Below, piece by piece: positions 4,851 through 64,000 of a DNA stretch of 64,000 nt (within the stretch, counting starts at the first letter, position 1; every line of letters begins with the position of its first letter). The notes under the pieces were generated by a model. That model saw nothing but the letters and a program-made list of their open reading frames with translations. It did not search any database and was not told the DNA's origin. The translations under genes and the position numbers were made by a program. The stretch comes from an uncultured Nitrospirota bacterium (lineage in GTDB: Bacteria; Nitrospirota; Nitrospiria; JACRHA01): positions 9,294-73,293 of the forward strand of contig CAYZUL010000003.1 in the NCBI GenBank assembly GCA_964481895.1, read 5' to 3'.

Positions 4851-4924
4851 AGTCATGCTTGTTATTGAGTTTCGTTGGTTAGGAGAGGCGAGTTAAGAGC
4901 CAACCCATAACTTAGAAATGAGGG

Positions 4925-5305: not shown

Positions 5306-5314
5306 GGCGAATTC

Positions 5315-10438: not shown

Positions 10439-10597
10439 AGCTGTATGACGGTTAAAGTAAATTAGCTTAACTCCTATCCTTATGTCAATATTGTGCTGCC
10501 GGGCATCTTCCGAGTATCTTGGCTCCTTGACATAAGTATGCAAAAGACTATAATCTATCACGAGAGATTAAAAACCCAAATACTATTTAATATTAAA

Positions 10598-12516: not shown

Positions 12517-12538
12517 ACAAGGGGTATCAGGACAAGCT

Positions 12539-29063: not shown

Positions 29064-29102
29064 ATATTCACCTCTCTTTTTACCTTTGTTTTCCATCATA
29101 TA

Positions 29103-46894: not shown

Positions 46895-46942
46895 TACCAA
46901 TTCGAATTCAACAGGATACCAGGGCGGCGAGGAGGAGTTAGT

Positions 46943-47866
46943 ATGGAAAAGAGGATAAGTGATATCTTAAGCTGGTATGCCAGCGACAATCCAGGCACTA
47001 AAACCAACCTTGCCCGCATACTAAACCATGGAAAACTGGGTGGCACAGGAAGATTGGTTATCCTTCCGGTTGATCAGGGTTTTGAGCATGGCCCTGCGCG
47101 CAGTTTTGCACCCAATCCATCTGCCTATAACCCTCTATACCACTTTGAGCTCGCTATTGAATCAGGTTGCAGCGCATATGCAGCCCCCCTCGGATTTATT
47201 GAGGCCGGCGCAGCGGAGTATGCCGGAGAGATCCCGCTAATCCTGAAACTAAACAGCCATGACACCCTGACAGATGAAAAGGATCCCCTCTCGGCTCAGA
47301 CTGCAAGTGTACGTGATGCCCTGAGGCTTGGCTGTGCCGGTGTCGGATATACAATCTATCCCGGCTCGGCCTTCAGTCAGGAAATGTACGAGCAGCTTCG
47401 GGAGATTGCCGAGGAGGCCAGGAGTCTTGGTCTTGTCGTAGTAGTCTGGTCTTATCCGCGGGGCTCAGGTTTGACCCCGAAGGGTGAGACCGCGATTGAT
47501 GTCGTGGCCTATGCCACACAGATTGCCTGCCAGCTTGGGGCGCACATTGTCAAGGTCAAATTGCCGGCTGATCATATCGAGCAGGCCGCGGCCAGGAAGG
47601 TATACGAGACATACCATATACCTGTCAAGACCCCTGAAGACCGGGTCCGCCACGTTGTGCAGAGCGCCTTTGATGGCAGGCGGATCGTCATCTTCTCCGG
47701 CGGAACCAAAGAGGAGGACGAGGTCTTTTTTAGCCAGGTCAGGGCCATAAGGGATGGCGGCGGCTTTGGTTCGATCATCGGCCGCAATACCTTTCAACGT
47801 CCCAGGGAGGATGCATTAAGGTTTCTCGAAAGGGTAATGAAGATATATACCGGAGAAGCGGGATAA
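46943..47866 (+). CDS. fbaB: class I fructose-bisphosphate aldolase (DhnA/FbaB-type, DeoC/LacD family)
   Basis: 307 aa. VILPVDQGFEHGP and a Schiff-base lysine region (IVKVKL), typical of archaeal-type class I aldolases. The related AroA-prime function cannot be excluded. Confidence 0.55.
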   Translation: MEKRISDILSWYASDNPGTKTNLARILNHGKLGGTGRLVILPVDQGFEHGPARSFAPNPSAYNPLYHFELAIESGCSAYAAPLGFIEAGAAEYAGEIPLILKLNSHDTLTDEKDPLSAQTASVRDALRLGCAGVGYTIYPGSAFSQEMYEQLREIAEEARSLGLVVVVWSYPRGSGLTPKGETAIDVVAYATQIACQLGAHIVKVKLPADHIEQAAARKVYETYHIPVKTPEDRVRHVVQSAFDGRRIVIFSGGTKEEDEVFFSQVRAIRDGGGFGSIIGRNTFQRPREDALRFLERVMKIYTGEAG

Positions 47867-47889
47867 GGAATTTACTAAGGAGGTAGTAT

Positions 47890-50067
47890 TTGGAGCGTTT
47901 GAGGGTTGGTTTCCTTTGGCACATGCATCAGCCTTATTATAAGGATCCTCTCACCGGGGCCTATTCCGTACCATGGGTACGGCTCCATGGAATAAGGGCC
48001 TATTACGATATGGCCAAGTTGCTCCTTGATTTTCCCGATATCAGGGTTACAGTTAATTTCGTACCTTCCCTTCTTCTTCAGATCCTCGACTATCAGCAGG
48101 GCCAGGCCCGGGATATCTTTCTGGAGTATACCTTAAGGCCGGCTGCTGACCTGGAGGAGGCTGAACAGCGGTTTATCCTCCGATATTTCTTTATGGCCAA
48201 CTGGGAAACCATGGTAAAGCCTATGGCGAGATATTATGAACTCCTTCATGACCGGGGGGTAAATCCTGACGAGCAGACGCTGGATAGGGCTGTTTTCCAG
48301 TTTAAGGCACGGGATTACCTGGACATTCAGGTGCTTTTCAACCTCTCCTGGTTCGGCTTTAAGGCAGTGGAGGAGTTGCCGGCCATGTCTGAGCTGATTT
48401 CAAAAGGACGCAACTATACAGAGGATGATAAGGCCGTGGTTATCAGGCATCAGCATGATATCCTCCGGAGGCTGATCCCGCTTTACAGGGGTCTTGAGGA
48501 GACCGGACAGATTGAACTGACCACAAGTCCCTTCTATCATCCGATCCTGCCATTAATTTACGATACCAACATAGCCCGAAGATGTATGCCGTATTCGCCT
48601 TTACCGGACAGGTTTGAGGCGCCGGAGGATGCAAAGAACCAGATCAGAAAGGCCGTTGAATTTCATTCCCGCATTTTTGGGAAAAAGCCGCGGGGTTCAT
48701 GGCCTTCTGAGGGATCTGTCTGTCCTGAGGTGATCCCCTTCCTGGCAGATGCCGGCCTCCGCTGGATTGCAACAGATGAAGAGATCCTGCTTAATTCTAT
48801 GCCTATGCTCTCCCGGAAGGATGCCCTGTACAGGTCTTACATTGCTGTATCTGAAGGCCGTGAGATAGGTATAGTATTTCGCGATAAAGAGATCTCCAAC
48901 CTGATCAGCTTCACATTGGGAAAGATGGATGCAGCTGCTGCTGTCGACAGCCTGTTTAAGAGGTTTAAGGCCGTCCATGATATGTTTGAGAACAGGAATG
49001 AGTCTGCCCTGGTAACGATCATCATGGATGGAGAGAACCCATGGGAGTATTACCCTGAAGGCGGACGCCGCTTTCTGACTGAACTCTATTCCCGCCTGTC
49101 AAAATCCTCCGACTTCATGACCGTCCGGATTTCGGATGATCTTGACCGGCATCAGCCGCGGCAGCGGATCCATCACCTCTACTCCGGTTCCTGGATCAAT
49201 CATGATTTTGATATCTGGATCGGCTCCTTCGAAGAGAATCTGGCCTGGGAATATCTGAGCCGTACCCGCAGGGCCCTGCTCCCCCTTCTTAATGATTCCT
49301 CCGTGCCACAAGATAAGCGTGAAGCGGCCTGGGAGGCGATCTATGCAGCCGAGGGGAGCGATTGGTTCTGGTGGTATGGTGACGACTTCACGAGCGCACA
49401 GGAAGAGGAGTTTGACAGGCTTTTCCGGGGGCACCTTGCCGGGGCATTCCGGCATCTGGGCCTGGAGGTTCCCAAATATCTGTCCCGTTCGATCATCCAT
49501 CTTCATCCTGCAAAACATGTGATCGTGCCTGTAAATTTTATCCATCCTGTCCTTGACGGTAAGCGCACCACCTATTTTGAATGGCAGGGCGCAGGCCGCT
49601 ATGATGCCATGCTTCGCACATTGATCCCTGATGCCGGACCCCCGCTCTTATCGGCTATATACTATGGGTTCAACCTGACACACTGCTACCTCCGTATAGA
49701 CCCAATTGAAGGGGATGGCCCGGAGAAGCTGAAAGGATATGAGATCCATGTCCATTTCTTCGACGGACCTGAGGAATACAAATGCGTCATACCTAGTACC
49801 AACGGCATCCTTTCCCGATTTTTCATTAACCGGAGCTGGGATGGGATACGGTATGAACTGCTGGCAGAGGCAGATACCATTGCAATGGGACAAGTCTTGG
49901 AACTTGCAGTGCCCTTTGACGCCCTTGGATGGAAGCCGGGGGAGAGTTTCAATTTTATCGTAGAGGTCCTGGTGGATGGAAAGGTGATAGAGACCTATCC
50001 CCCTAAGGGTTATATACCAATTGAGGTGCCTGGTAAGGACTTTGAACAGATGATGTGGAGCGTCTGA
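47890..50067 (+). CDS. glycoside hydrolase family 57 protein (alpha-glucan branching/4-alpha-glucanotransferase-like)
   Basis: 725 aa. GH57 N-terminal signature GFLWHMHQPYY. TTG start with RBS AAGGAGG. Confidence 0.8.
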   Translation: MERLRVGFLWHMHQPYYKDPLTGAYSVPWVRLHGIRAYYDMAKLLLDFPDIRVTVNFVPSLLLQILDYQQGQARDIFLEYTLRPAADLEEAEQRFILRYFFMANWETMVKPMARYYELLHDRGVNPDEQTLDRAVFQFKARDYLDIQVLFNLSWFGFKAVEELPAMSELISKGRNYTEDDKAVVIRHQHDILRRLIPLYRGLEETGQIELTTSPFYHPILPLIYDTNIARRCMPYSPLPDRFEAPEDAKNQIRKAVEFHSRIFGKKPRGSWPSEGSVCPEVIPFLADAGLRWIATDEEILLNSMPMLSRKDALYRSYIAVSEGREIGIVFRDKEISNLISFTLGKMDAAAAVDSLFKRFKAVHDMFENRNESALVTIIMDGENPWEYYPEGGRRFLTELYSRLSKSSDFMTVRISDDLDRHQPRQRIHHLYSGSWINHDFDIWIGSFEENLAWEYLSRTRRALLPLLNDSSVPQDKREAAWEAIYAAEGSDWFWWYGDDFTSAQEEEFDRLFRGHLAGAFRHLGLEVPKYLSRSIIHLHPAKHVIVPVNFIHPVLDGKRTTYFEWQGAGRYDAMLRTLIPDAGPPLLSAIYYGFNLTHCYLRIDPIEGDGPEKLKGYEIHVHFFDGPEEYKCVIPSTNGILSRFFINRSWDGIRYELLAEADTIAMGQVLELAVPFDALGWKPGESFNFIVEVLVDGKVIETYPPKGYIPIEVPGKDFEQMMWSV

Positions 50068-52223
50068 TGGGGCAGGTCTTCCTTCTTCTTGGGATACACA
50101 ATCACCAGCCTGTGGGCAATTTTGAGCACGTATTCCGGGAGGCACACGATAGATGCTACAGGCCTTTTCTTGATCTCCTCATGGAACATAGGACTATTCG
50201 TGTGGCCATGCATTACAGCGGCCCTTTGTTCGATTGGATGGAAGGGAATGAACCTTCATTTATCGGCCGGCTAAAGGAGATGGCGAAAAAAAGACAGGTG
50301 GAACTCCTCACGGGCGGCTACTACGAGCCTATCCTTGCCTCAATACCGGCAAGGGACGGAATAGGGCAGATCGGGATGATGACGCAATATTTGCGAAACA
50401 GGCTTGGCGCTGATCCTAAGGGGCTCTGGCTTGCTGAACGAGTATGGGAGCCGTCTCTTCCCGGCCTGCTTAATTCTTGTGGTATCGGTTATTCCCTTCT
50501 TGATGATACACATTTTCAGTATACCGGGGTCAAGCCTGAGACCTTGCGCGGCTATTACCTGACCGAGCATGAAGGGAAGGTCCTGGCGATATTTCCCATA
50601 AGCAAAAGGCTCCGTTACCTAATCCCCTTCCGTCAGCCGGAGGAGACGATAGAATATCTTGATCAACTGAGAAAGGAGGGTCCGGTTGCTATTACCTATG
50701 CAGACGATGGTGAGAAGTTCGGCCTCTGGCCCGGTACATATCGCTGGGTCTATGACATGGGATGGATAGAGAGATTCTTTAACCTTCTGGAGAAAAACAG
50801 TGACTGGATCACTACCATTACCCCCGGCGAATACCTGGCCAAGGCTCCGTCTTCCGGCCGTATTTATCTGCCGACGGCCTCATATGAAGAGATGATGGAA
50901 TGGGCCCTGCCTACAGAGACTATCCTGGAAAGGGAGGCGTTAGTTGCGAAGCTTGAGGCCTCAGGCCTGAAGGGCGCGACGGAGGGTTTTCTGCGCGGCG
51001 GACTCTGGAACCATTTTCTCGTAAAGTATCCTGAGATCAATCTTATGCATAAGAAGGCCCTATATATAAGCGAGAAACTTTCCCTCAAGGAGAAGAGACC
51101 CGGCATTTCCATGACCAAATGGTTTGCGGAGGCGAGGCGGGAGCTTTACAAGGCCCAGGGAAACGATGTCTACTGGCATGGGCTGTTCGGCGGGTACTAT
51201 CTAAATTATCTTCGGCATGCCGTGCACGAGCATCTCATAAAGGCTGAGAGGCTTATCGACGCTAAGACTGATCCCCGAATCCGCCTGACAGAGACAGACC
51301 TGGACCGGGATGGCTACCAGGAATTTATAGCAGAAACAGACTGTTTAAACCTCTATCTAAAACCGGATGATGGCGCCACAGTTATTGAGATCGATTACAG
51401 AACAAAGCCACTCTGCCTTACACATGTCCCGATGCGGAGGCCTGAGGCATACCATAAAAAGATCAAGATAGATCAGCCGGCTGCCTCTTCCCCTTCTCCG
51501 GGCAGTATCCCCTCTATCCATGAGCTCTCATCTTTAAAACCATCTGTCGCTGGCAAGAGACTGATCTACGATCGCTTGCCGAGGTGGTCATTCCGGGATC
51601 ACATCCTGACGAACGATACAACCCTGGACCAATTTGAGGCATCGAATTACGCGGAGATAGGTGGTTTTTCTCATAAACCTTATCAAAAAATAGAAGCCGG
51701 GACCAACACAGATGGGATCGTACTTGCCTTCCAACATACAGACATGATACACGACCTCTCCCTGACGGCCAAAAAGGTTTATACTGTTTCGGCTTCAGAT
51801 GCCGCATTTACCGTTCAGTATGCCTTTAGCCATGGGCCAGAGCAGTCAGAGTCGCCGGATCAGAATGGCCATGGCCTCCTCTGGGGGGTGGAGCTTAATC
51901 TGACCCTGCTGGCCGGCTCTGACCCAAGGCGTTATTACAGCTTTCCCGGAAGGGGTGTAGAAGAAAAACTCCTAAATAGCAGGGGGGTCCTGGAGGATCT
52001 TACTGAGGCGCATCTGATAGATGAATGGCAGGGGGTTGATATATGCCTTGAATTTAAGCCGGCCGCGCGCCTCTGGAGATTCCCGATAGAAACGATATCG
52101 CAATCAGAAGAGGGATTAGAGTCGAACTATCAAGGTTCCTGCCTTGTCATCCTCTGGCCTTTGACCCTTCCACTAAAGGGGAAGCAGGAGCGTCTCATCA
52201 CCATGAAGATCTCCGGACTTTAG
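50067..52223 (+). CDS. glycoside hydrolase family 57 protein (second paralog, amylopullulanase/4-alpha-glucanotransferase-like with DUF1925/1926-like C-terminus)
   Basis: LLLGIHNHQPVGNF GH57 signature. ATG 50067 overlaps the upstream stop (TGATG). The ORF is open from GTG 50055. Confidence 0.8.
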   Translation: MGQVFLLLGIHNHQPVGNFEHVFREAHDRCYRPFLDLLMEHRTIRVAMHYSGPLFDWMEGNEPSFIGRLKEMAKKRQVELLTGGYYEPILASIPARDGIGQIGMMTQYLRNRLGADPKGLWLAERVWEPSLPGLLNSCGIGYSLLDDTHFQYTGVKPETLRGYYLTEHEGKVLAIFPISKRLRYLIPFRQPEETIEYLDQLRKEGPVAITYADDGEKFGLWPGTYRWVYDMGWIERFFNLLEKNSDWITTITPGEYLAKAPSSGRIYLPTASYEEMMEWALPTETILEREALVAKLEASGLKGATEGFLRGGLWNHFLVKYPEINLMHKKALYISEKLSLKEKRPGISMTKWFAEARRELYKAQGNDVYWHGLFGGYYLNYLRHAVHEHLIKAERLIDAKTDPRIRLTETDLDRDGYQEFIAETDCLNLYLKPDDGATVIEIDYRTKPLCLTHVPMRRPEAYHKKIKIDQPAASSPSPGSIPSIHELSSLKPSVAGKRLIYDRLPRWSFRDHILTNDTTLDQFEASNYAEIGGFSHKPYQKIEAGTNTDGIVLAFQHTDMIHDLSLTAKKVYTVSASDAAFTVQYAFSHGPEQSESPDQNGHGLLWGVELNLTLLAGSDPRRYYSFPGRGVEEKLLNSRGVLEDLTEAHLIDEWQGVDICLEFKPAARLWRFPIETISQSEEGLESNYQGSCLVILWPLTLPLKGKQERLITMKISGL

Positions 52224-52356
52224 ACCCTACTATCTCCAGTTCTTAGCTTTCAAATTCACTGTTAGAAATCTAATGTCTAGAATGGGAATACTGGTCTGGT
52301 TAATGGAACACCTCGTATCTGCCGATATAAATCTAAACGTACAAAATGGGGACTTG

Positions 52357-52385
52357 TTGATCTGATTATTGAAATCCCTTATAAT
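52357..52385 (+). promoter_or_regulatory. sigma70-like promoter (-35 TTGATC 52357-52362, 17-nt spacer, -10 TATAAT 52380-52385)
   Basis: Good hexamers with optimal spacing 49 nt upstream of the galT-like ATG. RBS GGGAGG. Confidence 0.5.
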
Positions 52386-52433
52386 CATTGAACTAAGACA
52401 AACTTACAGTAAAAAAGGGAGGTTATATCTGAT

Positions 52434-53450
52434 ATGCCTGAACTAAGAAAAGACCCCATCAGTCAACGATGGGTAATTATTGCTACTGAACGGAGCAAGC
52501 GTGCAAACCATTATAAATCTTCTGGTCCTCCTCCGCAGGTTGAGCCGAAGTTCTGCCCCTTCTGTTCTGGTAATGAGGATAAGACCCCGCCGGAGATACT
52601 GGCCTACAGGCCTGATGGATCGAGACCGAATACACCGGGATGGCATATAAGGGTTGTGGCGAACAAGTTTCCGGCACTCAGGATCGAGGGTGGATTAAAC
52701 CGGGAAGGGGAGGGGATCTACGACAAGATGAACGGGATAGGGGCCCATGAGGTGATCATTGAAACCCCGGACCATAAACAGACCATGGCAACCATGACAG
52801 ACAAGTATGTCGAGGATATCCTCTGGAGCTTCCGGGACAGGATCCTCGACCTTAAAAAAGACAGACGATTCCGGTTTATCCTCCTCTTTAAAAACCATGG
52901 TGAGGCAGCCGGCGCCAGTGTTGATCATTCCCACTCTCAGCTTATTGCGCTCCCGATTGTCCCAAGGAATGTGATCGATGAGCTTCGGGGGGCCAAGGAT
53001 TACTACGACCAGAAGGAGCGGTGTATCTTCTGTGATATTATCCGGCAGGAGACAGCCTCAAAGGTCCGTCTGGTCAGTGAAAATGATCATTATGTATGCA
53101 TTACCCCCTACGCAGCGCGTTTCCCCTTCGAGACATGGATCTTACCCAAAAAGCATGGCCCTTTTTTTGAGGATTCCCAAAAGTATGAATTCGAGGCCCT
53201 TGCCAGGATACTCTGTGATACCCTAAGACGCCTGGACAAGGCCCTCAATAATCCCCCTTACAATTTTATCATCCATAGTGCACCTGTCAATCAGGCATAT
53301 CATGATGAGGATTACTACCACTGGCACCTGCAGATCATGCCGCGCCTGACCAATATAGCTGGTTTTGAGTGGGGCACAGGTTTTTATATAAATCCTACAC
53401 CTCCTGAGGAGGCAGCGAAATTCCTCCGCGAGCTGGAGCTCAGGGATTAG
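52434..53450 (+). CDS. galT: galactose-1-phosphate uridylyltransferase-like HIT-family nucleotidyltransferase
   Basis: 338 aa. Zn-binding CPFCSGNE and a HxHxQ-type active site (SVDHSHSQL). Placement in a glycogen cluster suggests sugar-1-phosphate nucleotidyl transfer related to glucan metabolism. Confidence 0.75.
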   Translation: MPELRKDPISQRWVIIATERSKRANHYKSSGPPPQVEPKFCPFCSGNEDKTPPEILAYRPDGSRPNTPGWHIRVVANKFPALRIEGGLNREGEGIYDKMNGIGAHEVIIETPDHKQTMATMTDKYVEDILWSFRDRILDLKKDRRFRFILLFKNHGEAAGASVDHSHSQLIALPIVPRNVIDELRGAKDYYDQKERCIFCDIIRQETASKVRLVSENDHYVCITPYAARFPFETWILPKKHGPFFEDSQKYEFEALARILCDTLRRLDKALNNPPYNFIIHSAPVNQAYHDEDYYHWHLQIMPRLTNIAGFEWGTGFYINPTPPEEAAKFLRELELRD

Positions 53451-54922
53451 TGCGAATACTCTACGCCGCATCTGAGGTTACACCCTTTGCCAAGACGGGC
53501 GGCCTGGCTGATGTGGCCGGGGCCCTTCCCGCAGCGCTGGCAGGACTGGGACACGATGTCAAGGTGGTCATGCCGGGGTATAATGGTGTTAAGGATAAAC
53601 CTGGAAGATATACTCCGAGGGGTAATATAAAGGTCAGTCTTGCCGGCGGGGTTTATCCCTTTGATGTAGAGTCGGGCCGTCTGCCTGAAACCGGTGTCGA
53701 GATCCTGTTCCTGTCCAATAGCCGCCTCTTTGACCGGCCAGGACTGTATCAGGAGAAGGGGAAGGATTACCCTGATAACCTGGAGCGGTTTGCGGCCTTC
53801 AGCCGTGCCCTACTTGAGGTCCCGGGATTGTTGGACTGGTATCCGGATGTGATCCATTGCAACGACTGGCAGACTGCATTGATCCCTGCCTACATAAAGG
53901 CCCATTTCCCGGACGACCCCAGGTTTACCGGGACAGGCACCCTCTTTACTGTCCATAATCTCGGCTACCAGGGGCTTTTCCCCGCTTCGGAATATCCAAA
54001 ATTATCCCTCCCCCCTGAATTCTTTACGCCGGAGACCCTTGAATTTTACGGAAAGGTAAATCTCCTCAAGGCAGGTCTTGTGTTTGCCGATATCCTGACT
54101 ACGGTAAGTCCTACATATAGCCATGAGATCCAGACACCCCAGTTTGGGTGCGGCCTGGAGGGGATCCTCCACGAAAGGAGCAATGATCTTTTCGGTATAA
54201 TAAACGGGGTCGATTATCAGCGATGGGATCCGGCCCATGATCCCCACCTGGGACAGCCTTATGATGCCCGGCAGTTGCAGGGCAAACGTCTTTGCAGGAG
54301 GCAACTCCAGAAGGCATCTAAACTGCCAATAAAAAAGGTACCCATCATCGGGATGATCACAAGGCTTACCGAGCAGAAGGGGGTAGACCTGGTAATAGAG
54401 GTGCTCGATGAATTGATGATGCTTGACATCCAGGTAGTCATCCTGGGCGAAGGAGACCCGGATATACACCAGAAACTCAATGAGGCGATGGGCCGTTATC
54501 CCAAAAAGCTTTCAGTCCATATCAACTTTGATGAGTCTCTGGCCCATCTGATCGAGGCCGGATCGGATATTTTTTTAATGCCTTCCCGCTATGAACCATG
54601 CGGCTTAAACCAGTTATACAGTTTAAGGTATGGGACAGTCCCTATTGTCCGGAAGACAGGCGGGCTGGCAGACACCATTATAGATGCCACGCCATCCAAC
54701 ATCGCTGCCGGCAAGGCAAATGGTTTCCTTTTCGAGCATGCGAGTTCCCATGAACTTCTTACAACTGTGAGGCTGGCCATTAACTTGTTTCATGAAACGG
54801 ATCTCTGGCTCCAATTGATCCGAAATGGAATGATGGCAGATTTCTCATGGGGCCGCTCCGCCAGGGAATATGAGAGGCTCTATCGTCTTGCCATTGATAA
54901 GGCGACAGATACTGGAAAGTAA
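53450..54922 (+). CDS. glgA: glycogen synthase (ADP-glucose type)
   Basis: 490 aa. MRILYAASEVTPFAKTGGLADVAGALP N-terminus. GT-B fold. GTG start overlapping the galT-like stop (TAGTG). Confidence 0.9.
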   Translation: MRILYAASEVTPFAKTGGLADVAGALPAALAGLGHDVKVVMPGYNGVKDKPGRYTPRGNIKVSLAGGVYPFDVESGRLPETGVEILFLSNSRLFDRPGLYQEKGKDYPDNLERFAAFSRALLEVPGLLDWYPDVIHCNDWQTALIPAYIKAHFPDDPRFTGTGTLFTVHNLGYQGLFPASEYPKLSLPPEFFTPETLEFYGKVNLLKAGLVFADILTTVSPTYSHEIQTPQFGCGLEGILHERSNDLFGIINGVDYQRWDPAHDPHLGQPYDARQLQGKRLCRRQLQKASKLPIKKVPIIGMITRLTEQKGVDLVIEVLDELMMLDIQVVILGEGDPDIHQKLNEAMGRYPKKLSVHINFDESLAHLIEAGSDIFLMPSRYEPCGLNQLYSLRYGTVPIVRKTGGLADTIIDATPSNIAAGKANGFLFEHASSHELLTTVRLAINLFHETDLWLQLIRNGMMADFSWGRSAREYERLYRLAIDKATDTGK

Positions 54923-55035: not shown

Positions 55036-58000
55036 TTAAGAAATAAAATCAATGGCAACTAGCCTAAGCAATTCAGGCTTGTATGGCGGAATCTCTTTCT
55101 TTTCAAAGGTAAACTTTCCTTCAAGGAATTCTGATAATTCCCTTAAAAGGCCCTTCCAATTTTTATGATTATTCTTATAATCTCTCCAGATAGCCCTTAA
55201 TCCTTGAAGCCTCTTTTTTGTAAGGCTTATGGTTAAAAGCCTTTCCTTTACCTCTTCCCACTTATCTTCAAGCGCTTTTTCTTCAGGAAAGTCCAATATA
55301 TGTTCATCTATTTGCAGATCTATCTCTCTAATGAGATTTGATACAAACTTCTTGCTCCTGTCTTGGCTTAATTCAGAAAATGTGGAATCCACCCCTTCCC
55401 TCTGTTCTGCCTCTTTATAAGTTTCCTCTATTTCTATAATCACCTCTCTATTTACCTCATAGACCCTTTCAAAGAAATCAGGTATCACCCTTTTCTCTTC
55501 AGGAGGACAGGAGATAAAATCTAAGATCCTTGTCTTGTTTGTAATCTTCTCCCCTGTTGAAAGATCATAAAGATACCAGAAATGGAAGTCCTCACCATAT
55601 TTATAATAGAAAAAGATCCCTTTTATATCTCTCTTGAGACCGCTATGAATCCCAAGGGGGATAGATTCAAGCCCTTCAAGCCCCTTTGTCCTAAGATAGT
55701 TTTTCAAAGGCTGATAGAATCTCTCTCCGCCGCCAAAGACATCTCTTTCAAGTTCATCAAATATCATCTTATCCCGCTTCCTAATCCTTCTTATAACGCC
55801 AAATACTTTTGGATTAACCTCTTCTCCAAGAACTGTCTGATCAAGCCCGACTGCATTGTCGATATTCCGTATCTTTTTCTGGAGGATCTCCATAAGGCGC
55901 AAAAGGTCTTCTAGCTCCTCCTCCGGGAAGAAATTGTATACATAGATCTCATCAAAGGTAGAACCTATTCTATCTATTCTGCCTGCCCTCTGGATCATCC
56001 TGGTAGGGTTCCAGTGGAGGTCATAATTGATAAGATACTGGGCCTTTTGAAGGTTCATCCCCTCAGAGAGGACATCCGTGCTCATTAAGATATTAATCTC
56101 CCCCTTCATAAAGTCATCAACAATCCTCGTGCGTCTGGTGGCAGAGGCTACCCTGCCTGAAATCTTCTCTATTCTAATCTTTGAAAATAGGCTGTCTTCG
56201 GATATATTTTTATGGATATAATCATATCCATAACAATATATAATCAAGGGTATCTGCATAATATGTGAATACAACAACCTGTCCTTTTCTGCCCAATTCC
56301 AGGAGTCTCTTCTTTAGCTCCTTAAGCTTTGCATCTGCCTCCGCATCAATCGTCTCGACCATCCTGCCCATTTCATTGAATAGGGCTATATCCTTATCAA
56401 TTTCACCAAAGAGTTCTTCTTTTTTATAATCTTCAAGATTGATATCTTCCAGTTCATCAACAAATTCTTCAGCAGTCTCCTCATCCAGGTTGGAGATATA
56501 TTTATAAAAGGTTTTTTTAGTGAGGAGCTTACCCTTCATTAGATATCCCTTAAATTTCTCCAGAAAGGCCAGATGATTGGAGACGCTCTTTCTAAATGCA
56601 TCAACACTGCTTTCAAGCCTCTTTAGCAGAATGGTCCTGAAGATCCCTTCCAGGGCCACCATCCTGCCCAATGCCATCTCCTCATCTTTGGAAAGCCTCT
56701 CTTTCTTTCTATATTCGAGTACCCGATAATAGGCCATGGTCAATCTTTCACTTATAATCCTGGATATATCTCTATAGAGCCCCTGATAGGCATTATCGAG
56801 CTTGTAATTGATATTCTCCAATATCCTTTTGGGAAAGACGATCTTTTTCCCATAAATCTCTGCGTCAGGATAGTTCTCTCTGACATAATCCCTTGTCCTC
56901 CTGATTGATATCTCGTTCATGAGATCATTTAGGAGTGTAGGATCGCCCTCTTTATCAATATCCTTAAAAAACTTAAAGAGGCTCGGTATCCCCTCCTTGA
57001 GAAAGATATTCTGATCCATAAAGGTGAGCAGCATTATCTGCCAGTAAAGATCCCACAGGGTATTATTAATGGGTGTGGCAGTAAGAAATAAGATATAAGG
57101 CCTCCTCCCATTCCCTCCTATATGATTGATAATGGTAAATAGATTTTCCCAACGATTAGAAAGGGGATTTCTAAAGTTGTGGCTCTCATCTACCACTATC
57201 AGGGAAACCTCATCAAGATTACCTCCTACTGAATGTCTTGCTTTATCCAGAAAATCAAGAGATGCAAGCTCTTCCTGGGATAGGATGCTCTCAGACAGGA
57301 TAAGGTCTTTAACCTCATTTCTCCACATCTCCCTTAATTGGGCAGGGCAGATAATAAGAAACCTCTTTCTTTTATAAAAACCAAACTCCTCTATGATCTT
57401 TTTGGCTATCCATGTCTTACCCAGGCCTACTGCATCTGCTATCATGCAGGCCTTATATTTTTTAAGACGGGTAAAAACCCTCCTTACGGCATCTTCCTGA
57501 AACTCTGCAAGGTTAACCAGTGAGGAAGGTCTGGCATCTTTCTCCTTTTCTTCATCATCAATTTTTAAGTCGTCTTTTTGTAATTCATAGAGGGACTTTA
57601 TATAAACCTCAAAAGGGCTATACTCCTTAGTCCCGAAACGGGAGGAATCAAGGAGTTCAATCAGTCTTGCCTTGAAATCAACCGCCTCATTCCAGAATTT
57701 GTCAAACCAGTTTGTCCGCACATATTGCGCCTCTGACTCAAGAGAAACAGAGTTTAACTCCGTGTTATGCGTAAGACCTGATGGTGTGAAGTTTGATGAG
57801 CCTACTACCACAAGACTATCGAATATATATGCTTTACCATGGAAAAATTCCTTATCGTAGAGCCTGACCTCCACATTATCTTTATTGAGAAACCCTATTA
57901 TCTCCTTGGCCAGGTTATTTTTATCTTTAGAGAGATCAAACCCTTCAACCTCCTCCTTAATCATTTTCAAAAGCAGATCCCCAAGCGTAGTCTCATTTTT

Positions 58001-58195
58001 TATCTCTGGTGCTTTCCCCAGGAGAAGCCGGAATCTTTTGACCCCCTGGATATTCTCTTTTATTAAGGCATAGGCCTGGATATTAAAAAAGGCGGTAGCA
58101 ATATCAAATTGGGTATTTGGTATCTCCTTCAGGACATCATTAAGGAAGGTAGATAACTTTACATCGCTGTTGTCTATGATTTTCTTTGGGATCAT
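55036..58195 (-). pseudogene. PLD-family nuclease (HKD) + SNF2-family helicase fusion gene, disrupted by a frameshift from a 22-bp insertion
   Basis: The N-terminal ~180 aa carry the HKD motif FHGKAYIFDSLVVVGSSNFT. SNF2 motifs follow (ADAVGLGKT, LIVVDESHNFRN). The helicase C-terminal domain (ILMSTDVLSEGMNLQ...QRAGRIDRIGS) continues in another frame, as ORFs 56222-58195 and 55036-56277. Removing the 22 nt between the 8-bp direct repeats ATATAATC (56216-56223 and 56238-56245) restores ...TLDYIHKNISED.... Confidence 0.75.
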
Positions 58196-58340
58196 ATATC
58201 TCCAATCGCCCTATGCTTGACAACCCGATAGCATTGTATCATACTATAAATGAGCGATAAGACCGTTGTGGGTTCCTTTGGCGTTCCCTTCCGTAGGTTG
58301 GCCAAGCCAGAGGGCACGCACCCACAGGGCACGCTCATTT

Positions 58341-58973
58341 TTATGGTAAATAAACGTCATCGTATTTGATCTTACTCTTAAAAACGTCAAACCATTCCTT
58401 ATCATCTTTTTCGTATTTCCGGAAGATCCCCCAGGAAAATAAATCAACTGCCTGAAGAGGCAGGTCTTCATGGGAAAGATGGTGATCTATATCGAGTGGG
58501 ATTCTTGGTTCTATTCTGCCGCTTAACTGACGGATCAGGTAGTCATCGAACTCTCTTATTTCTTTCTTACTCTTGCTCCTGTCTATTACAAGTCCGACTC
58601 TTACCGAGGCATTTGTAAAAGGAATGACATCAAGAACTTTTCTTGCGATAAAGTTGTAAACCCTGTCCTTTTTCTGTGACAAATAATCATATACCCGTCT
58701 TTTGTTGAGCGTGAGGGCGTAAAGCTCGAAGGGGACAGCTTCAACATGCCGGTAAAAATATCTCTTTATTTCTATGGATTGCTTTGACCCTTTCAGTTCA
58801 GTCTGTTGTTTCGGGAATTTACTTTGCAGGGTTCTTTTTACAGCCTTAGCTATTTTCTTCCTGTTTTCCATGTCATGTACCAGCATTACAGTAACCGTAA
58901 AATACTTCGACGGTTTCTTTGCGAAGAAGTCGAACCCCAGGTCGCCGCTTTCATCAAGGTACAAATATAGCAT
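58341..58973 (-). CDS. DUF3800 family protein
   Basis: 210 aa. N-terminal MLYLYLDESGDLGF, the hallmark DUF3800 motif. Confidence 0.6.
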   Translation of the reverse strand: MLYLYLDESGDLGFDFFAKKPSKYFTVTVMLVHDMENRKKIAKAVKRTLQSKFPKQQTELKGSKQSIEIKRYFYRHVEAVPFELYALTLNKRRVYDYLSQKKDRVYNFIARKVLDVIPFTNASVRVGLVIDRSKSKKEIREFDDYLIRQLSGRIEPRIPLDIDHHLSHEDLPLQAVDLFSWGIFRKYEKDDKEWFDVFKSKIKYDDVYLP

Positions 58974-59039
58974 TTATTTCCTATGTTTTATTGGAATACT
59001 CCTTGTAGATATCTCTTAAAAATTCATGACCCCTTGAGC

Positions 59040-61946
59040 CTAAGCAAATTCTCTTTTCCTTAGTTCAACATCTTCATCAGCTCGCTTTTGTTCGTATGTA
59101 ATTCTCCTGTCTAAATAATCTTCATATTTTCTAACAAAGGATTGTATAGTCTTGTTCTTGTCTTTTTCCCAGTCCTGGACTTCTTGCCGTTTGGCTCTAT
59201 AGGCTTCCACAAAACCATACTCACCAATTACGACACCGGTCTGTGACAAGATAATAAACATTTCTTTCATATATTTATCACTGTGATATCTTTTTATAAA
59301 TTCTTTGCACACACCGTACAAAAAAGGCTCTCCCTTATATGCCCTCAAAACTGAAATAACGATCTTTGCATTCTTATCCCCGCCCTTCATAATCAGATTT
59401 ATCATTTCACTCTCAAGTGATTTATCGAAAGCCGGAAAGATTGCCTGCAGGAAATGGCTCGCTTCCCATTGGAACAACCAGTCTTTTTCTGCAAACCAAC
59501 CTACTATTTCTCGGACTACTATATTGGCGTGCTTCTGAAGCGGCTTATTTATTATGTGCAAACTGAACGGTATTGCATCATATCTTTCCCCTTCTTGTTT
59601 ATGTAGACGCTTAGAGACCCGTTTTCTAAAAAACTGTATCAGCCTTTTAGGATACTTCTCAGCAACTGGAGATAGTATTTCCTCGGCGTGATAGTCGATA
59701 TCCGGCGCAAAGATCAAGCTGTCAAGTATAGCCACAAGATCTTTCTCAGTGAGGGCATCGAGAAGTGACGGTTTTCTGAACCATACACCTCTGATCCAAT
59801 GGTAGTTCCTTAATTCAGCCAGTTTCTTGATAGCCCCAACGAAGACCTTCTTAAGCTTCGTGGACTTCGGATATTTCGGATAATTTCGGACAATCGCGCT
59901 TACGATACGGGAAAGAGCATCTGCGTCATTATTCTCACTTGCCCTGTTGTATATACCTTTCAGAAGAGGGGTATCGATTTCCTCCACATATTCAAGCAAA
60001 TCTGCACATATAGATAGTCTCTTATTCTCGCCAATCCACTTTTTCAATATGTCTTTAGCGTTTATGGATGACTCGCCTTTCCATAAACCCGCAAGCATGT
60101 GAATTAAGCAAGGATCAAGCTCTTTTTCATTTTGATAGAGCAACATTAAGGCAAACTCTGTTTTTTGTTTTCCAATTTCGAACAGGAACATATTAAAATA
60201 TTGGAATTCACCCCAACTTACGGGATAATTTTTGATGATAGCTAAAATCCTGCTTTGCCAATCCTCATAAGAGCTCTTATTTATGCTATCAATCAACACT
60301 TGAAGTTTCTCTTTGCGTAACTTCTCTGTTTCTTTAACGTCTAATCCAGCGGCAACCCCATAATCGTAACCGACAAGAATCCTGTATGTTTCGTATTCTT
60401 TATTCGAAGAAATGTTTGACCGAAGGGAATAGGCTTTATCATTCAAGCCCTTTCTATCAAAAAACTGTGACTGTTCTTCAATGTCTTTAATAATCTCATT
60501 TTCCGCTGTGGGCAAAATCTCACTATAAAATTCAATTAGCATATTGGTATTCTCAACGACCATTTGCAGGAGGTTATCTCCGTAGTTCCCTTGGTGTGGT
60601 GTCTGCGACGCATCTTGTAATACTTGTAATACCCTGATCCGCTGGGTTATCTCTTTCATGTCGTGATATAACCGTTTTAGCAGGTTTATAGTACGAGTTC
60701 TGATACTTTTCAACTCATCGTTCACAGGAAGCGGCCCATAATGAAATGTGACAGTCTTGTAGTCAGACATCGAAGTGCCTTCAAAAGAAGGCTTTAGCAA
60801 CTGGCTGGCGATTTCCGTAACAGCCTCGAAATATTCGATAATTTTTGTGTTATTCCACTTCTCCATTTTATCCAAGACAAAAAGCTGTGGGGAATAACCA
60901 ATTTTCTGAATCACATGCAAGTTATAACTCGCAAGCTTACTCAAACCCTCTATAGCTTTCTTCTTTACAGTGGGATTTGAATCGCCTGAGAGCCGAATAA
61001 GCAATTCAAATATTTTTTCGGTATGGAAGTATTTCAATTCACTTAAGATATCCAAACAGATTTTTGCTATGTCAGCATAGTGCTTTCCTTCAAATTCTCC
61101 AAGTGCTGTTTTTATGGGTTCTGGAACGCTCCCTTTTGCATTTTGCAGAGCGCTGTCTACGATGGTGATGATATCGAATTTCTTTGGTGTCTTGTCTCCG
61201 AATTCTTTAACGAATTGATGCAACAGGGAGAGCTGTTCGTACAAGTCATTATTAGACGCTGATTTCATGATCCCTTCTAAGAATCGAACGTCAAATACTG
61301 TCTTGCCTTGTTTAAGTTTCTCGAACTGCTTATAAATGAACTCAAAGCTATAGCTCGCCTGCCTGATGTGATTTTGCATCACATCTGAGAACTGTTTTTT
61401 CAAGGATTCGAACGCAGGCCGGTCAAATACCGATAACTCCTTTTGGGGTTTATATATAATGTCATGTGCCATTTCGGACCATGCATGATAAAGGACGGTC
61501 GTAAGTTGAATCTCGCATCTCAAGCCTGTGAATTTTACGTATTCAGTTAGGTCCAGCCTGTCCTTATTCAGGTGAACAACAAGATGGTGAGCGTTATAGT
61601 CATCAGGGGAGAATTTAGGAACATTCTTGATGACCGAAAACTCTTTGTAGACGTATTCAATAAATCGCCCTATATCACTATCAAGATAAAAAATAACTCT
61701 GCAACCGGCAAGATCGTCCAATTCTGCAAAGGGTATATTTTGCAGTTTTGAGTTGTCTCTAATTTTTCGCTCCAATGATTCTGGGTCTTTTTCGCGTGCG
61801 GATACCACCTGGTAGTGAAATCCGTTATTCTTCAATAAGGTTTCTAATATGAATTTCACCGCGCTTGAAAAATCCTTATAAGTGAGCTGGATCCTTTTAT
61901 ACTGCTCCAGAAGTGATGTAATCTTTTCCTTGCTATCCACCCTCAC
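59040..61946 (-). CDS. RelA/SpoT-like (RSH/toxSAS-type) nucleotidyltransferase domain fused to ~770-aa HEAT/ARM-like alpha-helical repeat region
   Basis: 968 aa. Residues ~40-170 carry REKDPESLERKI (R.K...S..K), DDLAGCRVIFYLD and CEIQLTTVLYHAWSEMAHDIIYK (ExQxRT..xHxWxExxHxxxYK), the (p)ppGpp-synthetase-fold signature. The remainder is helical repeats (e.g. NPTVKKKAIEGLSKLA). Low GC. 4-nt overlap with the upstream methyltransferase gene. Confidence 0.7.
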   Translation of the reverse strand: MRVDSKEKITSLLEQYKRIQLTYKDFSSAVKFILETLLKNNGFHYQVVSAREKDPESLERKIRDNSKLQNIPFAELDDLAGCRVIFYLDSDIGRFIEYVYKEFSVIKNVPKFSPDDYNAHHLVVHLNKDRLDLTEYVKFTGLRCEIQLTTVLYHAWSEMAHDIIYKPQKELSVFDRPAFESLKKQFSDVMQNHIRQASYSFEFIYKQFEKLKQGKTVFDVRFLEGIMKSASNNDLYEQLSLLHQFVKEFGDKTPKKFDIITIVDSALQNAKGSVPEPIKTALGEFEGKHYADIAKICLDILSELKYFHTEKIFELLIRLSGDSNPTVKKKAIEGLSKLASYNLHVIQKIGYSPQLFVLDKMEKWNNTKIIEYFEAVTEIASQLLKPSFEGTSMSDYKTVTFHYGPLPVNDELKSIRTRTINLLKRLYHDMKEITQRIRVLQVLQDASQTPHQGNYGDNLLQMVVENTNMLIEFYSEILPTAENEIIKDIEEQSQFFDRKGLNDKAYSLRSNISSNKEYETYRILVGYDYGVAAGLDVKETEKLRKEKLQVLIDSINKSSYEDWQSRILAIIKNYPVSWGEFQYFNMFLFEIGKQKTEFALMLLYQNEKELDPCLIHMLAGLWKGESSINAKDILKKWIGENKRLSICADLLEYVEEIDTPLLKGIYNRASENNDADALSRIVSAIVRNYPKYPKSTKLKKVFVGAIKKLAELRNYHWIRGVWFRKPSLLDALTEKDLVAILDSLIFAPDIDYHAEEILSPVAEKYPKRLIQFFRKRVSKRLHKQEGERYDAIPFSLHIINKPLQKHANIVVREIVGWFAEKDWLFQWEASHFLQAIFPAFDKSLESEMINLIMKGGDKNAKIVISVLRAYKGEPFLYGVCKEFIKRYHSDKYMKEMFIILSQTGVVIGEYGFVEAYRAKRQEVQDWEKDKNKTIQSFVRKYEDYLDRRITYEQKRADEDVELRKREFA

Positions 61947-64000
61947 ACGCTCCTCGCCTTCTCAAGCCTGTTCTTGACCAGCTCGCATACCGCCCAATAG
62001 ACCTCGTTTCTTTCTTCTTGTGTCAGACCAAGGATGTCGAAGACAATATCATGGAGGGCCTTGCGGTCAGGAAGGGGATTGGGTGTTTGCTCGCGGATGG
62101 GACGGGTCGGGTTGATGCGAAGTTCTTCGAAGACCGAATTAATCCTTCGTTTACCAAGTTCTGAATCTATGAGTTCCTCTATCTTGCTCCTCTGCTTCTT
62201 TTGCAACAGAGACGGTGCAACTATAATCTCAGCCCGCCTCAAATCCTCAACAAGCAATCTTACAGCCCCTCCACCTAATCCCTTTCTTCCAAGAACCTCA
62301 ACAAAAAACGCTGTCAATGTACTATTTAGGAGACCACACAAGATTGTAGATATTGAATCATCTTTTGGGACTATGCCATGAAAGTTATGAGTAAAATAGA
62401 GATTGTGAGTATTGTAATGACATAAATGCCTATCACCTCTAATATCTACCCATAACAATTTTGCATGTTTTAACTCTCTTCTTATTCCTTCGATCAATAT
62501 CAATAGGGTATCAGTATCATTTTCCCCAAAAATAATTTTTTCGATTTCTCTTGGGCTTTTGAGAACGGGCAGCGTTTCATATTTTGCAGAGTAACCTTCA
62601 CTTTTCGGAATCAGGATTTCGCTATTGAGTCCTTTTCGGCTCCATGCAACTGTGATTACCTTGCCAATGTGAGGTTGAATGGCTGTCAATTTATCATTGC
62701 CCTTTTCAAGTATTGTATAGAATATATCCGGCGCCCTCAGATATTTTCCTCCCCATTTGTTCCCCTCATATTTACCGGTGAGGAATTTGTCTTTCAATAA
62801 TGACTGAGATTGCTTCGTCGCTCTGCTCCTCGCAATGACATCCTTTTCTTCTGACTTCTGAGTTTCTTCGGGATACTCCCATCCGTCATCCAGAAGCATC
62901 TCCTGTTTTACCGGATAGACCCTGTAGGTATCTGTTTTCCGAATGGCATCTGCCATTTCTATCTCAAGAAGGTTTTTTACGTTTACAACTTCCTCAAAGG
63001 GCCTTTTGAACATAACAAATCGGGCTGTCTCTTCTAATGCGGGCCATGTACCCTGCACACGACCGACATCTGGCGGCCCGAAGATGGCAATAATCGTATT
63101 CACGTCCGCATGTTCAAAGCTCCTCTTTGCCTCGTTATCATAGACCGCCTTGATTGGGCAGTACTTGAGGAGGAACTCCTGAAGATCCGCTCCATACCCC
63201 ACATCGAGCCATGAATTAGAGGTGATAAAGCAGAATGTGCCCTTGTCATTAAGAAGCGAGAGGCCGTGGAAATAGAAATAGATGTAATAATCGCTTTTTT
63301 TATCAAGCTTCTTTATGAAGGGGTAATGAACCTGTATCGAGCTAAGAAGTTTTTCCTTGTATCCCCTCTTGTCCTCAAGGGTCACCTCTGCCTTGAGCTT
63401 ATTTGGAGGGGCGATCTTCTCCTGCCTTACATATGGCGGATTACCGATGACAATATCAAAGCCCCCCTTATCGCCAAAGATCTCTGCAAAGTCAATGTCC
63501 CAGACAAAGGGTTTTTGTCCTGGCAACTGGATTTTCCTTTTCGTCTCCAGCAAATGTTCGATCTCCTGCCCTTTGGCCTTTATCTGTTCTTCAAAGAGAG
63601 AGGGCGAACGACCGTTCGCCCCTACATCAAACATCTCTATCTGGATTTTTCTTTTTTCGCCTTTTAATGCCTGGATCTCCTTTTGGAGGCTTACAATCTT
63701 CTCATCCAGTATCTCGCCAAAGATCCTTAGCTCTTCCTGTAAAAGGCCCTCAGCGCTCTTAAATTTGCCTGTCGGGTCATTGTTGTAGTATTTCTCCTTC
63801 TCCGCCTTCAGGGATGTAAGCCTTTTCTTGATGGAAGGAGAAAGCTTACTGTCCCTGACATGGAGGTTTACTCCTCCTACCTCTTGTACTAATGAATCTC
63901 CTATCCTGAGCCTTAAGTTGAGGTTTGGAAGAAGTGGGAAGAGCTTTCTCTGCTCATATGGGATATCCTCTTCGATGATTAACTGAAGCCATAGCCTAAG
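61943..64000 (-). CDS. N6-adenine DNA methyltransferase, Eco57I/TaqII/PglX-like gamma class (5' end lies beyond the window)
   Basis: The reading frame stays open on the minus strand from 63634 to the window edge (...RIGDSLV...). DIVIGNPPYV motif IV (D/N-PPY) and a C-terminal TRD-like region (LLNSTLTAFFVEVLGRKGLGGGAVRL...AP) are typical of type IIG/IIL RM and BREX PglX methyltransferases. Confidence 0.75.
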   Translation of the reverse strand, partial: LRLWLQLIIEEDIPYEQRKLFPLLPNLNLRLRIGDSLVQEVGGVNLHVRDSKLSPSIKKRLTSLKAEKEKYYNNDPTGKFKSAEGLLQEELRIFGEILDEKIVSLQKEIQALKGEKRKIQIEMFDVGANGRSPSLFEEQIKAKGQEIEHLLETKRKIQLPGQKPFVWDIDFAEIFGDKGGFDIVIGNPPYVRQEKIAPPNKLKAEVTLEDKRGYKEKLLSSIQVHYPFIKKLDKKSDYYIYFYFHGLSLLNDKGTFCFITSNSWLDVGYGADLQEFLLKYCPIKAVYDNEAKRSFEHADVNTIIAIFGPPDVGRVQGTWPALEETARFVMFKRPFEEVVNVKNLLEIEMADAIRKTDTYRVYPVKQEMLLDDGWEYPEETQKSEEKDVIARSRATKQSQSLLKDKFLTGKYEGNKWGGKYLRAPDIFYTILEKGNDKLTAIQPHIGKVITVAWSRKGLNSEILIPKSEGYSAKYETLPVLKSPREIEKIIFGENDTDTLLILIEGIRRELKHAKLLWVDIRGDRHLCHYNTHNLYFTHNFHGIVPKDDSISTILCGLLNSTLTAFFVEVLGRKGLGGGAVRLLVEDLRRAEIIVAPSLLQKKQRSKIEELIDSELGKRRINSVFEELRINPTRPIREQTPNPLPDRKALHDIVFDILGLTQEERNEVYWAVCELVKNRLEKARSV

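Follow-up and report, generated by a model that had tools for sequence, protein, structure and literature searches.

The window analyzed here is a stretch of 64,000 nucleotides from an uncultured Nitrospirota bacterium (GenBank assembly GCA_964481895.1, contig CAYZUL010000003.1, positions 9,294 to 73,293 of the forward strand). Toward its end, the minus strand carries a gene for a large N6-adenine methyltransferase, then genes for a RelA/SpoT-like protein and a DUF3800 protein, and then an interval (55036..58195) encoding a phospholipase D (PLD) nuclease domain with an HKD motif together with an SNF2-type helicase. The initial annotation, made from this sequence, had paired the nuclease-helicase with an Eco57I/PglX-like methyltransferase, with two unrelated genes between them. 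This was borne out, the Eco57I-type methyltransferase lying upstream on the same strand; the two intervening genes are referred to below as cargo. The methyltransferase and the PLD-SNF2 protein are a conserved two-gene pair.

The interval 55036..58195 had been described as a PLD-SNF2 fusion. Pfam searches confirmed the HKD, SNF2, and Helicase_C domains, but the coding sequence is split by a 22-nt insertion into two open reading frames (ORFs) that overlap by 56 nt (56222..58195, 657 amino acids, and 55036..56277, 413 amino acids), and in the window copy the two RecA lobes of the motor sit in different frames. The nuclease motif reads H119-G-K121-AYIF-D126-SLVVVG-SSN135, which is of the HxK(x)4D(x)6GSxN nuclease type; H119, K121, and G132-S-S-N135 are invariant in 48 homologs and D126 is conserved at 90% or more. 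The SNF2 N-lobe was matched by SNF2-rel_dom (E 6e-14) and ResIII (E 1e-11), and the ATPase motifs GLGKT (Walker A), DESH, TATP (motif III), and QRAGRIDRIG (motif VI) are invariant across the family and kept in the window copy. The Walker A Lys is K260 in the window copy and K261 in the intact homolog P0004. The invariance of the HKD motif, Walker A, DExH, and motif VI in the 48 homologs indicates that both the nuclease and the motor are under selection. Each chain gave one PLDc_2 match in Pfam and is thus a single-HKD protein. PLD active sites need two HKD motifs, so cutting by this protein should need two molecules, and the single motif copy implies that the PLD domain would dimerize. A PDB sequence search with the helicase returned generic SNF2 and DEAD matches only; RapA was the top PDB fold match for the predicted model of an intact PLD-SNF2 homolog. 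A candidate frameshift element, flavi_FSE, at 57400..57452 was treated as a chance match (Rfam, 19.8 bits against a gathering score of 43).

Codon 650 is the last one before the break in the frame, which falls where the RecA2 lobe begins. The junction reads GATTATAT-ATTGTTATGGATAT-GATTATAT-C, in which an 8-nt direct repeat (GATTATAT) stands on both sides of 14 nt. All four homologs aligned as DNA (related loci L002, L005, L007, and L008) have a 22-nt gap at this site, and the insertion is found in the window only. Deletion of the 22 nt gives a 1045-amino-acid frame that covers 100% of the intact homologs of ~1047 amino acids at up to 79% identity, and the repaired junction fits the family consensus FTYYADTLDYIYxxI. 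The same break is present in the Logan assembly of SRR4343435, where contig L001 is identical to the window at the site. Among 254 positions invariant in the 48 homologs, the window copy departs from the family at four, all of them conservative, and the catalytic motifs are all kept, which indicates that the inactivation of the helicase gene is recent. The helicase gene has decayed in L143, L154, and L155/L156 too, about 5% of related loci, and the window adds a further case.

Two other metagenome contigs carry an independent second frameshift, a +1 C in ACCC(C)TCG (L155 8113-8115 and L156 6258-6262). No more than about 10 nt separates the two frameshifts, both of them at the RecA lobe boundary, a proximity for which a rough estimate of chance is about 0.06; their near coincidence may be just that, or may mark a fragile or tolerated split point.

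The conservation of the pair was assessed in 80 close-relative metagenome loci (helicase identity 52-80%) and 80 more distant loci from GTDB (26-59%). In the close set, the methyltransferase gene lies upstream on the same strand in 44 of the 44 loci with at least 4 kb of upstream sequence, and in 48 of 49 when at least 3 kb is required. The annotated contexts of three intact homologs that are 77-79% identical (one in Ca. Loosdrechtia, one on a contig from Hainich groundwater, and one on a JGI contig) all run on one strand from a methyltransferase of the MmeI_Mtase/Eco57I type (1241-1294 amino acids) through variable genes to the PLD-SNF2 gene. The intact Ca. Loosdrechtia pair is locus L003 (CP129469.1, 2,862,917-2,886,063), in which the methyltransferase occupies 3497-7222 and the helicase 10001-13147. 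Most of the distant loci also have the methyltransferase. It is upstream in relatives above about 34% identity, and in a clade at 27-30% identity it is directly downstream, overlapping the helicase stop codon in a compact helicase-then-methyltransferase operon. Homologs occurring mostly without a methyltransferase, which the initial annotation had named as the pattern that would speak against its proposal, were therefore found in neither set. Spacing varies widely among 56 close pairs, being 60 nt or less in 25 and more than 500 nt in 27 (up to 6.7 kb). When 597 neighboring ORFs from 86 close loci were clustered, the helicase was represented in 86 loci, the methyltransferase in 61, and the next family in 10-11, and no third conserved gene emerged. 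A recurring gene for a protein of ~360-385 amino acids between the partners was rejected as a third component because the proteins concerned are mutually unrelated; they include an HTH-M78 peptidase, DUF3644/PDC-S19, an AbiLi-like ATPase, HEC-01A, and a PLD nuclease.

The two proteins also co-vary. Matrices of pairwise identity for the helicase and the methyltransferase core were correlated (Pearson 0.85; Mantel 0/2000), and the identity of the target recognition domain (TRD) of the methyltransferase was nearly uncoupled from the rest (Spearman 0.32), indicating that specificity is swapped independently, as in restriction-modification systems that exchange specificities. Loci L090 and L091, for example, share 95% identity in the helicase and 91% in the core but 50% in the TRD. 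The window methyltransferase and that of L005 are likewise well conserved in the catalytic part and the last 60 residues (closing block 48/59 identical), and their TRDs align only through long gaps with scattered matches. At least 594 loci in GTDB species representatives, from bacteria and archaea, encode relatives of the PLD-SNF2 protein, and close relatives hold 60-80% identity between the two domains of life. The earlier proposal of a restriction module thus stands as far as a conserved, co-evolving pair is concerned, but the nuclease-helicase gene is frameshifted here and a working restriction module is not expected in this genome.

Table 1. Features of the probable restriction-modification locus in the window, and duplicated gene fragments in related loci (L numbers; coordinates of the respective locus)
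Feature	Coordinates	Strand	Evidence or remark
PLD(HKD)-SNF2 helicase-nuclease gene, disrupted (pseudogene or split gene)	55036..58195	-	1045 amino acids once repaired
PLD-like nuclease domain, residues 28-168	57692..58114	-	Pfam PLDc_2, E 6.6e-12
HKD motif, H119-N135	about 57791..57841	-	Within PLD-like domain
SNF2 ATPase N-lobe and helical insert, residues about 228-657	56222..57514	-	Pfam SNF2-rel_dom, ResIII, DEAD
Helicase_C (RecA2 lobe) and ~300-residue C-terminal region	55036..56244	-	Pfam, E 2.7e-20; out of frame with N-terminal part
22-nt frameshifting insertion	56224..56245	-	DNA alignment to homologs; one of several equivalent placements
Gamma-class N6-adenine methyltransferase, C-terminal 685 codons including TRD	61943..64000	-	Runs off the window; start would be near 65527
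DUF3800-V RNA motif (RF02964), cargo	58247..58341	+	Rfam, 71.4 bits against gathering score 37.4; E 5.6e-15
DUF3800 protein, 210 amino acids, cargo	58341..58973	-	Pfam DUF3800, E 4.4e-12
RelA/SpoT-like protein, 968 amino acids, cargo	59040..61946	-	Pfam RelA_SpoT, E 1.8e-11, residues 51-169
Methyltransferase-tail duplicate, L005	9383-9487		
Methyltransferase-tail duplicate, L007	6957-7130		
Methyltransferase-tail duplicates, L088	201-266 and 576-686		
Methyltransferase-tail duplicate, L090	8924-8980		
Methyltransferase-tail duplicate, L091	9074-9160		
Methyltransferase-tail duplicate, L095	7881-8027		
Remnant of the helicase's first 70 codons, L096	9418-9624		One locus

The methyltransferase had looked like an orphan in the initial annotation, an impression that was not sustained. 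The 563-amino-acid ORF seen in the window (61943..63634) is part of a gene cut by the window edge, with a frame open through base 64000, and an exact-match search retrieved the full protein from the same 84-kb NCBI contig (P0121, 1194 amino acids, 100% match), a type IIG/PglX-like enzyme that is the family-wide partner of the nuclease-helicase. Pfam Eco57I matched it with E values of about 1e-27 to 1.8e-27. In P0121, motif I (DPACGSGAF, about residue 450) precedes motif IV (NPPY, residue 696) and the TRD is C-terminal, an order that assigns the enzyme to the gamma class. Its layout comprises an N-terminal domain, a helical spacer, the gamma-class core, the TRD, and a C-terminal helical tail, with a coiled-coil helical insert of about 140 residues between motifs I and IV (coiled coil at residues about 564-666). 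The AlphaFold2 model of P0121 (pLDDT 82, pTM 0.82) aligned over more than 1000 columns with BrxX/PglX, and further fold matches were CamA, BpuSI, MmeI, and DrdV; a PDB sequence search gave no match. The best PADLOC models for the full-length protein were those of REase_MTase_IIG (163 bits), with a match that includes its residues 165-390. The methyltransferase contains the only recognizable specificity element of the pair and would by inference supply sequence recognition. With gene 2 frameshifted and the methyltransferase intact, the system in this genome is most likely restriction-dead and methylase-positive, as judged from the sequence, and the methyltransferase probably still marks DNA.

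In some related loci the methyltransferase gene is itself interrupted. In-frame stops without a change of frame occur in L164 (2484-7559), L155 (138-3920), and L166 (6307-9993), and may have arisen by nonsense mutation or assembly error, or reflect a host with a recoded stop codon. The methyltransferase is broken and the helicase intact in L142 and L166, a loss that would be tolerable if restriction needs the methyltransferase, following type I/III logic.

The explanation favored here, with a probability of roughly two in three, is that the locus is a copy of a two-gene, type III/ISP-like, ATP-dependent restriction-modification system that has a cargo hotspot between its genes and whose restriction half is broken in this genome. 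The combination of an HKD nuclease with an SF2 helicase is regarded in the literature as carrying out restriction in type I/III-like systems (PMC10853773). The gene 1 product, the methyltransferase, would mark host DNA and recognize unmarked sites through its TRD; the gene 2 product, PLD-SNF2, would be loaded at unmethylated sites and translocate on duplex DNA with ATP, and cutting would follow when two single-HKD domains meet. By analogy with characterized systems, we infer host protection by methylation, recruitment of the nuclease-helicase by the methyltransferase, and cleavage after translocation. Several points weigh against this explanation. Every mechanistic step in it is an analogy. 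BREX, whose mode of action is not simple cleavage, also uses a PglX-like methyltransferase. The 22-nt insertion is carried by two assemblies, but these probably come from the same read set. Finally, the N-terminal domain of the methyltransferase contains a Glu that is invariant in the 40 closest sequences, with an acidic residue nine positions upstream of it in 32 of the 40 and the Lys of an E-x-K motif in 18, and some methyltransferases of the family may keep a nuclease of their own.

These N-terminal residues are central to the alternative that survives best, in which the methyltransferase would be a self-sufficient type IIG/IIL enzyme with its own PD-(D/E)xK nuclease and PLD-SNF2 an accessory, acting for example in processive degradation after the cut. 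The proposal fits the PADLOC result and the fold matches to BpuSI, MmeI, and DrdV, as well as the alpha/beta domain predicted by AlphaFold2 for the first 140 residues, which holds the invariant Glu. Of the 40 closest methyltransferases, however, 15 have Thr in place of the Lys, as does P0121 (E-A-T), and in an alignment of 49 sequences no potentially catalytic residue, whether acidic or Lys, reached 90% conservation within residues 1-170. Pfam searches of the N-terminus at E values up to 10 found no usable nuclease match (PDDEXK_15 appeared at E 0.19 in one archaeal homolog). The HKD residues of the partner, by contrast, are invariant, and the strict pairing and co-evolution argue that PLD-SNF2 is an obligate partner. 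We tentatively read the N-terminal domain as degenerate or non-catalytic, and the lack of conserved catalytic candidates in its 170 residues suggests that the methyltransferase is not the nuclease; a self-sufficient enzyme is accordingly regarded as unlikely.

Slightly less probable again is that the system functions in this genome, either because the frameshift is an artifact of sequencing or assembly or because the two halves assemble into an active enzyme. The probable common origin of the two assemblies would allow an artifact, and a split enzyme would be in keeping with a break that falls exactly between the RecA lobes and with the nearby break in L155/L156, which could hint at a tolerated split point. 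An insertion of 22 nt is nevertheless atypical of short-read error, two assemblers reproduced it, and decay at a rate of about 5% among related loci is usual for restriction genes. As regards a split enzyme, the downstream ORF has nothing resembling a Shine-Dalgarno sequence before its first ATG.

The pair was then compared with known systems, beginning with those that share its proposed logic. Type III enzymes (EcoP15I, Mod2Res1) likewise have a two-gene mod-res operon, a TRD on the methyltransferase, and an SF2 ATPase-nuclease; dependence of the latter on the methyltransferase and the ATP-dependent, long-range, two-site logic would by analogy be common to both, and loss of the methyltransferase gene is tolerated. 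Mod is a beta-class enzyme, however, whereas the methyltransferase here is a gamma-class, type IIG/PglX-like protein of ~1200 residues, and Res combines a non-SNF2 motor with a C-terminal PD-(D/E)xK nuclease, in place of the N-terminal single-HKD PLD domain and RapA-like SNF2 motor found here. Type ISP enzymes (LlaGI, LlaBIII) contain the same set of modules, namely a nuclease, an SF2 translocase on double-stranded DNA, a gamma-class methyltransferase, and a TRD, and cleavage upon collision of translocating enzymes would be expected by analogy. They are single polypeptides with an Mrr-type nuclease, unlike the two proteins here, which use a PLD nuclease and whose genes admit insertions between them. 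Type IIG/IIL enzymes and PglX/BrxX (MmeI, BpuSI, DrdV; 9EWZ, 8C45) share the overall architecture of the methyltransferase and are its best fold matches. The enzyme described here differs from them in lacking a conserved PD-(D/E)xK triad, in its ~140-residue coiled-coil insert, in always being paired with PLD-SNF2, and in failing the NCBIfam PglX models.

The initial annotation had pointed to DISARM and BREX, and a kinship with these systems was not supported. Class 1 DISARM (DrmD, DrmMI, DrmA, DrmB, DrmC) also joins an SNF2 helicase, a large Eco57I-type methyltransferase, and a PLD nuclease, and DrmD is the best curated profile match of the helicase. DrmA and DrmB (DUF1998) are absent here, however, the PLD domain is fused to SNF2 instead of forming a separate DrmC, and the scores for DrmD and DrmMI lie far below the cut-offs. 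The profiles matched by the helicase, all well below family thresholds, were C3a139 "HKD+Snf2" (the best PADLOC model), DrmD, BrxHII, HmaA (115 bits in PADLOC), and "phospholipase D-like anti-phage protein". An intact homolog (P0004) scored 201 bits against NCBIfam DrmD (NF038317; cut-off 610), and the methyltransferase scored 57 bits against the PglX models (BREX_1/2/5/6_MTaseX; cut-off 900) and 51 bits against that of BREX-2 (cut-off 400). The window island and the annotated contexts of homologs contained neither a DUF1998 protein nor a second, DrmA-like helicase, and neither PglZ nor BrxC/PglY occurred in those contexts. Type-2 BR/Hma systems are similar in having an N-terminal HKD domain in place of a Tudor domain, a RapA-like SNF2 core, an N6-adenine methyltransferase partner, and auxiliary effectors embedded in their loci, but BR/Hma systems are centered on the DUF499 AAA+ ATPase (HmaC) and, in 98% of type-2 loci, on DUF3780 (PMC12839542). 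RapA has also been reported as the best match for BrxHII and BR helicases (PMC12839542). Neither DUF499 nor DUF3780 was present in the Pfam-annotated neighborhoods L002-L007, and no dedicated DUF499 profile was run over all loci.

It is therefore doubtful, more so than for the alternatives already considered, that the pair is a reduced DISARM, BREX, or type-2 Hma/BR system with its partners elsewhere, acting by a BREX-like, non-cleaving or poorly understood block of phage replication. The top named matches of the helicase (DrmD, BrxHII, HmaA), the superposition of the methyltransferase model on BrxX/PglX over more than 1000 columns, and the N-terminal HKD domain of type-2 BR helicases (PMC12839542) speak for such a relationship. 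The curated cut-offs were missed by wide margins, though; DUF1998/DrmA, PglZ, BrxC, DUF499, and DUF3780 were not found in the annotated contexts; and many pairs are tight two-gene operons between housekeeping genes. The lack of any third conserved gene across 86 loci indicates that the pair is not DISARM, BREX, or Hma/BR. SauUSI has the domain order PLD, SF2 helicase, C-terminal recognition region. The last alternative, that PLD-SNF2 is a modification-dependent type IV enzyme of this kind, sharing its domain order and having an uncharacterized C-terminal region of ~300 residues, with a methyltransferase that is unrelated or counteracting, is highly improbable, as such an enzyme would not need a cognate methyltransferase and would be put at risk by one, yet the two are paired in 44 of 44 loci, share strand and operon, and co-evolve.

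In the literature, the pair has been noticed only in passing, in two reports (PMC9881135, PMC6546367) and possibly a third (PMC5608340), and no name or test for it was found. One describes a coding sequence for a PLD and SNF helicase beside a Cj0031-like type II restriction-modification gene (PMC9881135), and C3a139 "HKD+Snf2" (PMC6546367) is among such reports of a helicase beside restriction-modification genes. C3a139 was dropped as a lead, since the name only denotes a cluster of genes neighboring type III CRISPR loci. In Prevotella intermedia, the type IIG-annotated enzyme Pin17FIII writes N6-methyladenine at GGYGAB, and its two-gene locus has an SNF2/RAD54 helicase gene upstream (PMC5608340). 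This description agrees with the restriction-modification reading; the locus is set beside the family by its description only, and no PLD domain was reported in its helicase. Two of these three published cases, Pin17FIII and CP083813, have the helicase-then-methyltransferase order of the 27-30% clade and may, by this analogy, belong to it. None of the three papers (PMC5608340, PMC9881135, PMC6546367) describes a restriction phenotype, partner dependence, or a cargo hotspot. The snf2 gene of Tn1806/ICESa2603 elements is a methyltransferase-SNF2 fusion and was excluded as lying outside the PLD-SNF2 family. The pair is filed here as an ATP-dependent restriction-modification system with a helicase-nuclease subunit, outside every named family.

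The space between the partners is occupied by highly variable cargo. In close loci, 149 cargo ORFs fell into 107 BLAST clusters, 84 of them singletons, and those that could be identified are mostly known or candidate defense genes. They include Avs2 (E 6e-218), HEC-01A (E 2.5e-152), PDC-S19/DUF3644 (E 2.5e-137), an AbiLi/PDC-M38A-like ATPase with DUF3226, an SDH-type protease, an HTH-M78 peptidase with DUF4411, an extra PLD nuclease, an HD protein, DUF5677, and HicA and ParE toxin modules. Among all cargo, one fixed module of two genes recurs most often: a gene for an HTH and M78 (ImmA/IrrE-like, RmrA/CapP-like) peptidase is followed by one for a DUF4411 protein. It was found in L008 and L011, which are archaeal genomes, and in six metagenome contigs (L113, L119, L129, L132, L159, and L162), where the gap between the partners is mostly exactly 1664 nt across the eight carriers.

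In the window, the start of the RelA/SpoT-like gene overlaps the methyltransferase stop codon by 4 nt. Its product matched PADLOC PDC-S33 (E 1.1e-12) through the N-terminal domain only, which is followed by about 800 helical residues, and it had no homolog in any of 166 related loci; it could, as a speculation, be a CapRel-like fused sensor-effector. The DUF3800 gene is convergent with a full-length DUF3800-V RNA that adjoins its 3' end. This RNA also occurs in or beside the cargo of L005 (9239-9335), L002 (9589-9684), and L091 (8544-8636), on the strand opposite the operon, and a DUF3800 gene lies near it in L005 and L002. Both of those genes are cargo, and blastp tied the window DUF3800 to the L005 copy only. 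DUF3800 has been associated with 11 RNA motifs (PMC5737381). As a core component it was rejected, being present only in part of the closest subclade.

The cargo of some relatives also contains fragments of the flanking genes. Six independent loci of the window's subclade carry, within the cargo, degraded extra copies of the last 20-58 codons of the methyltransferase, several of which extend to the original stop codon, and a single locus retains a remnant of the start of the helicase gene (Table 1). No duplicate tail was found in the window. The sequences of these tails suggest that they may be footprints of cassette gain by unequal recombination between family members. More tentatively, and at less than even odds, the pair might be both a distinct class of ATP-dependent restriction-modification system and a scaffold for exchanging defense genes by recombination. 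The 3' tail of the methyltransferase gene and the 5' end of the helicase gene would then serve as homology arms for cassette swapping, and the cargo would ride on the frequent transfer of the system between bacteria and archaea.

The defense island has a GC content of ~40%, compared with 46-53% elsewhere in the window, and a sharp boundary in composition separates 55036..64000 on the minus strand from 44840..54922 on the plus strand. The latter stretch, with a GC content of 44-53% (about 50% over most of its length), encodes a transketolase, a DeoC-type aldolase, two GH57 enzymes, a GalT-like protein, and glycogen synthase. The island is convergent with glgA and adjoins housekeeping genes of glycogen and pentose-phosphate metabolism. 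Elsewhere in the window, and unrelated to the restriction pair, a block of minus-strand genes includes one for a 1467-amino-acid protein with a PilY1 beta-propeller domain (24696..29099), which at a guess belongs to a type IV pilus cluster.

Despite the number of GTDB loci with relatives, no name in a defense database and no experiment covers this two-gene system, and annotation tools would label its methyltransferase as a lone type IIG enzyme and its helicase as "DrmD-like". By analogy, the system resembles the type ISP/type III mechanism in split form, with PLD as the nuclease. The gap between the partners concentrates known and candidate defense genes and could be mined for new ones; candidates include DUF3800 and its RNA. 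The copy in the window is a decayed example; the family and its cargo hotspot merit experiment. In practical terms, the restriction half of the system appears to be dead in this Nitrospirota genome, while the methyltransferase is probably still marking the DNA.

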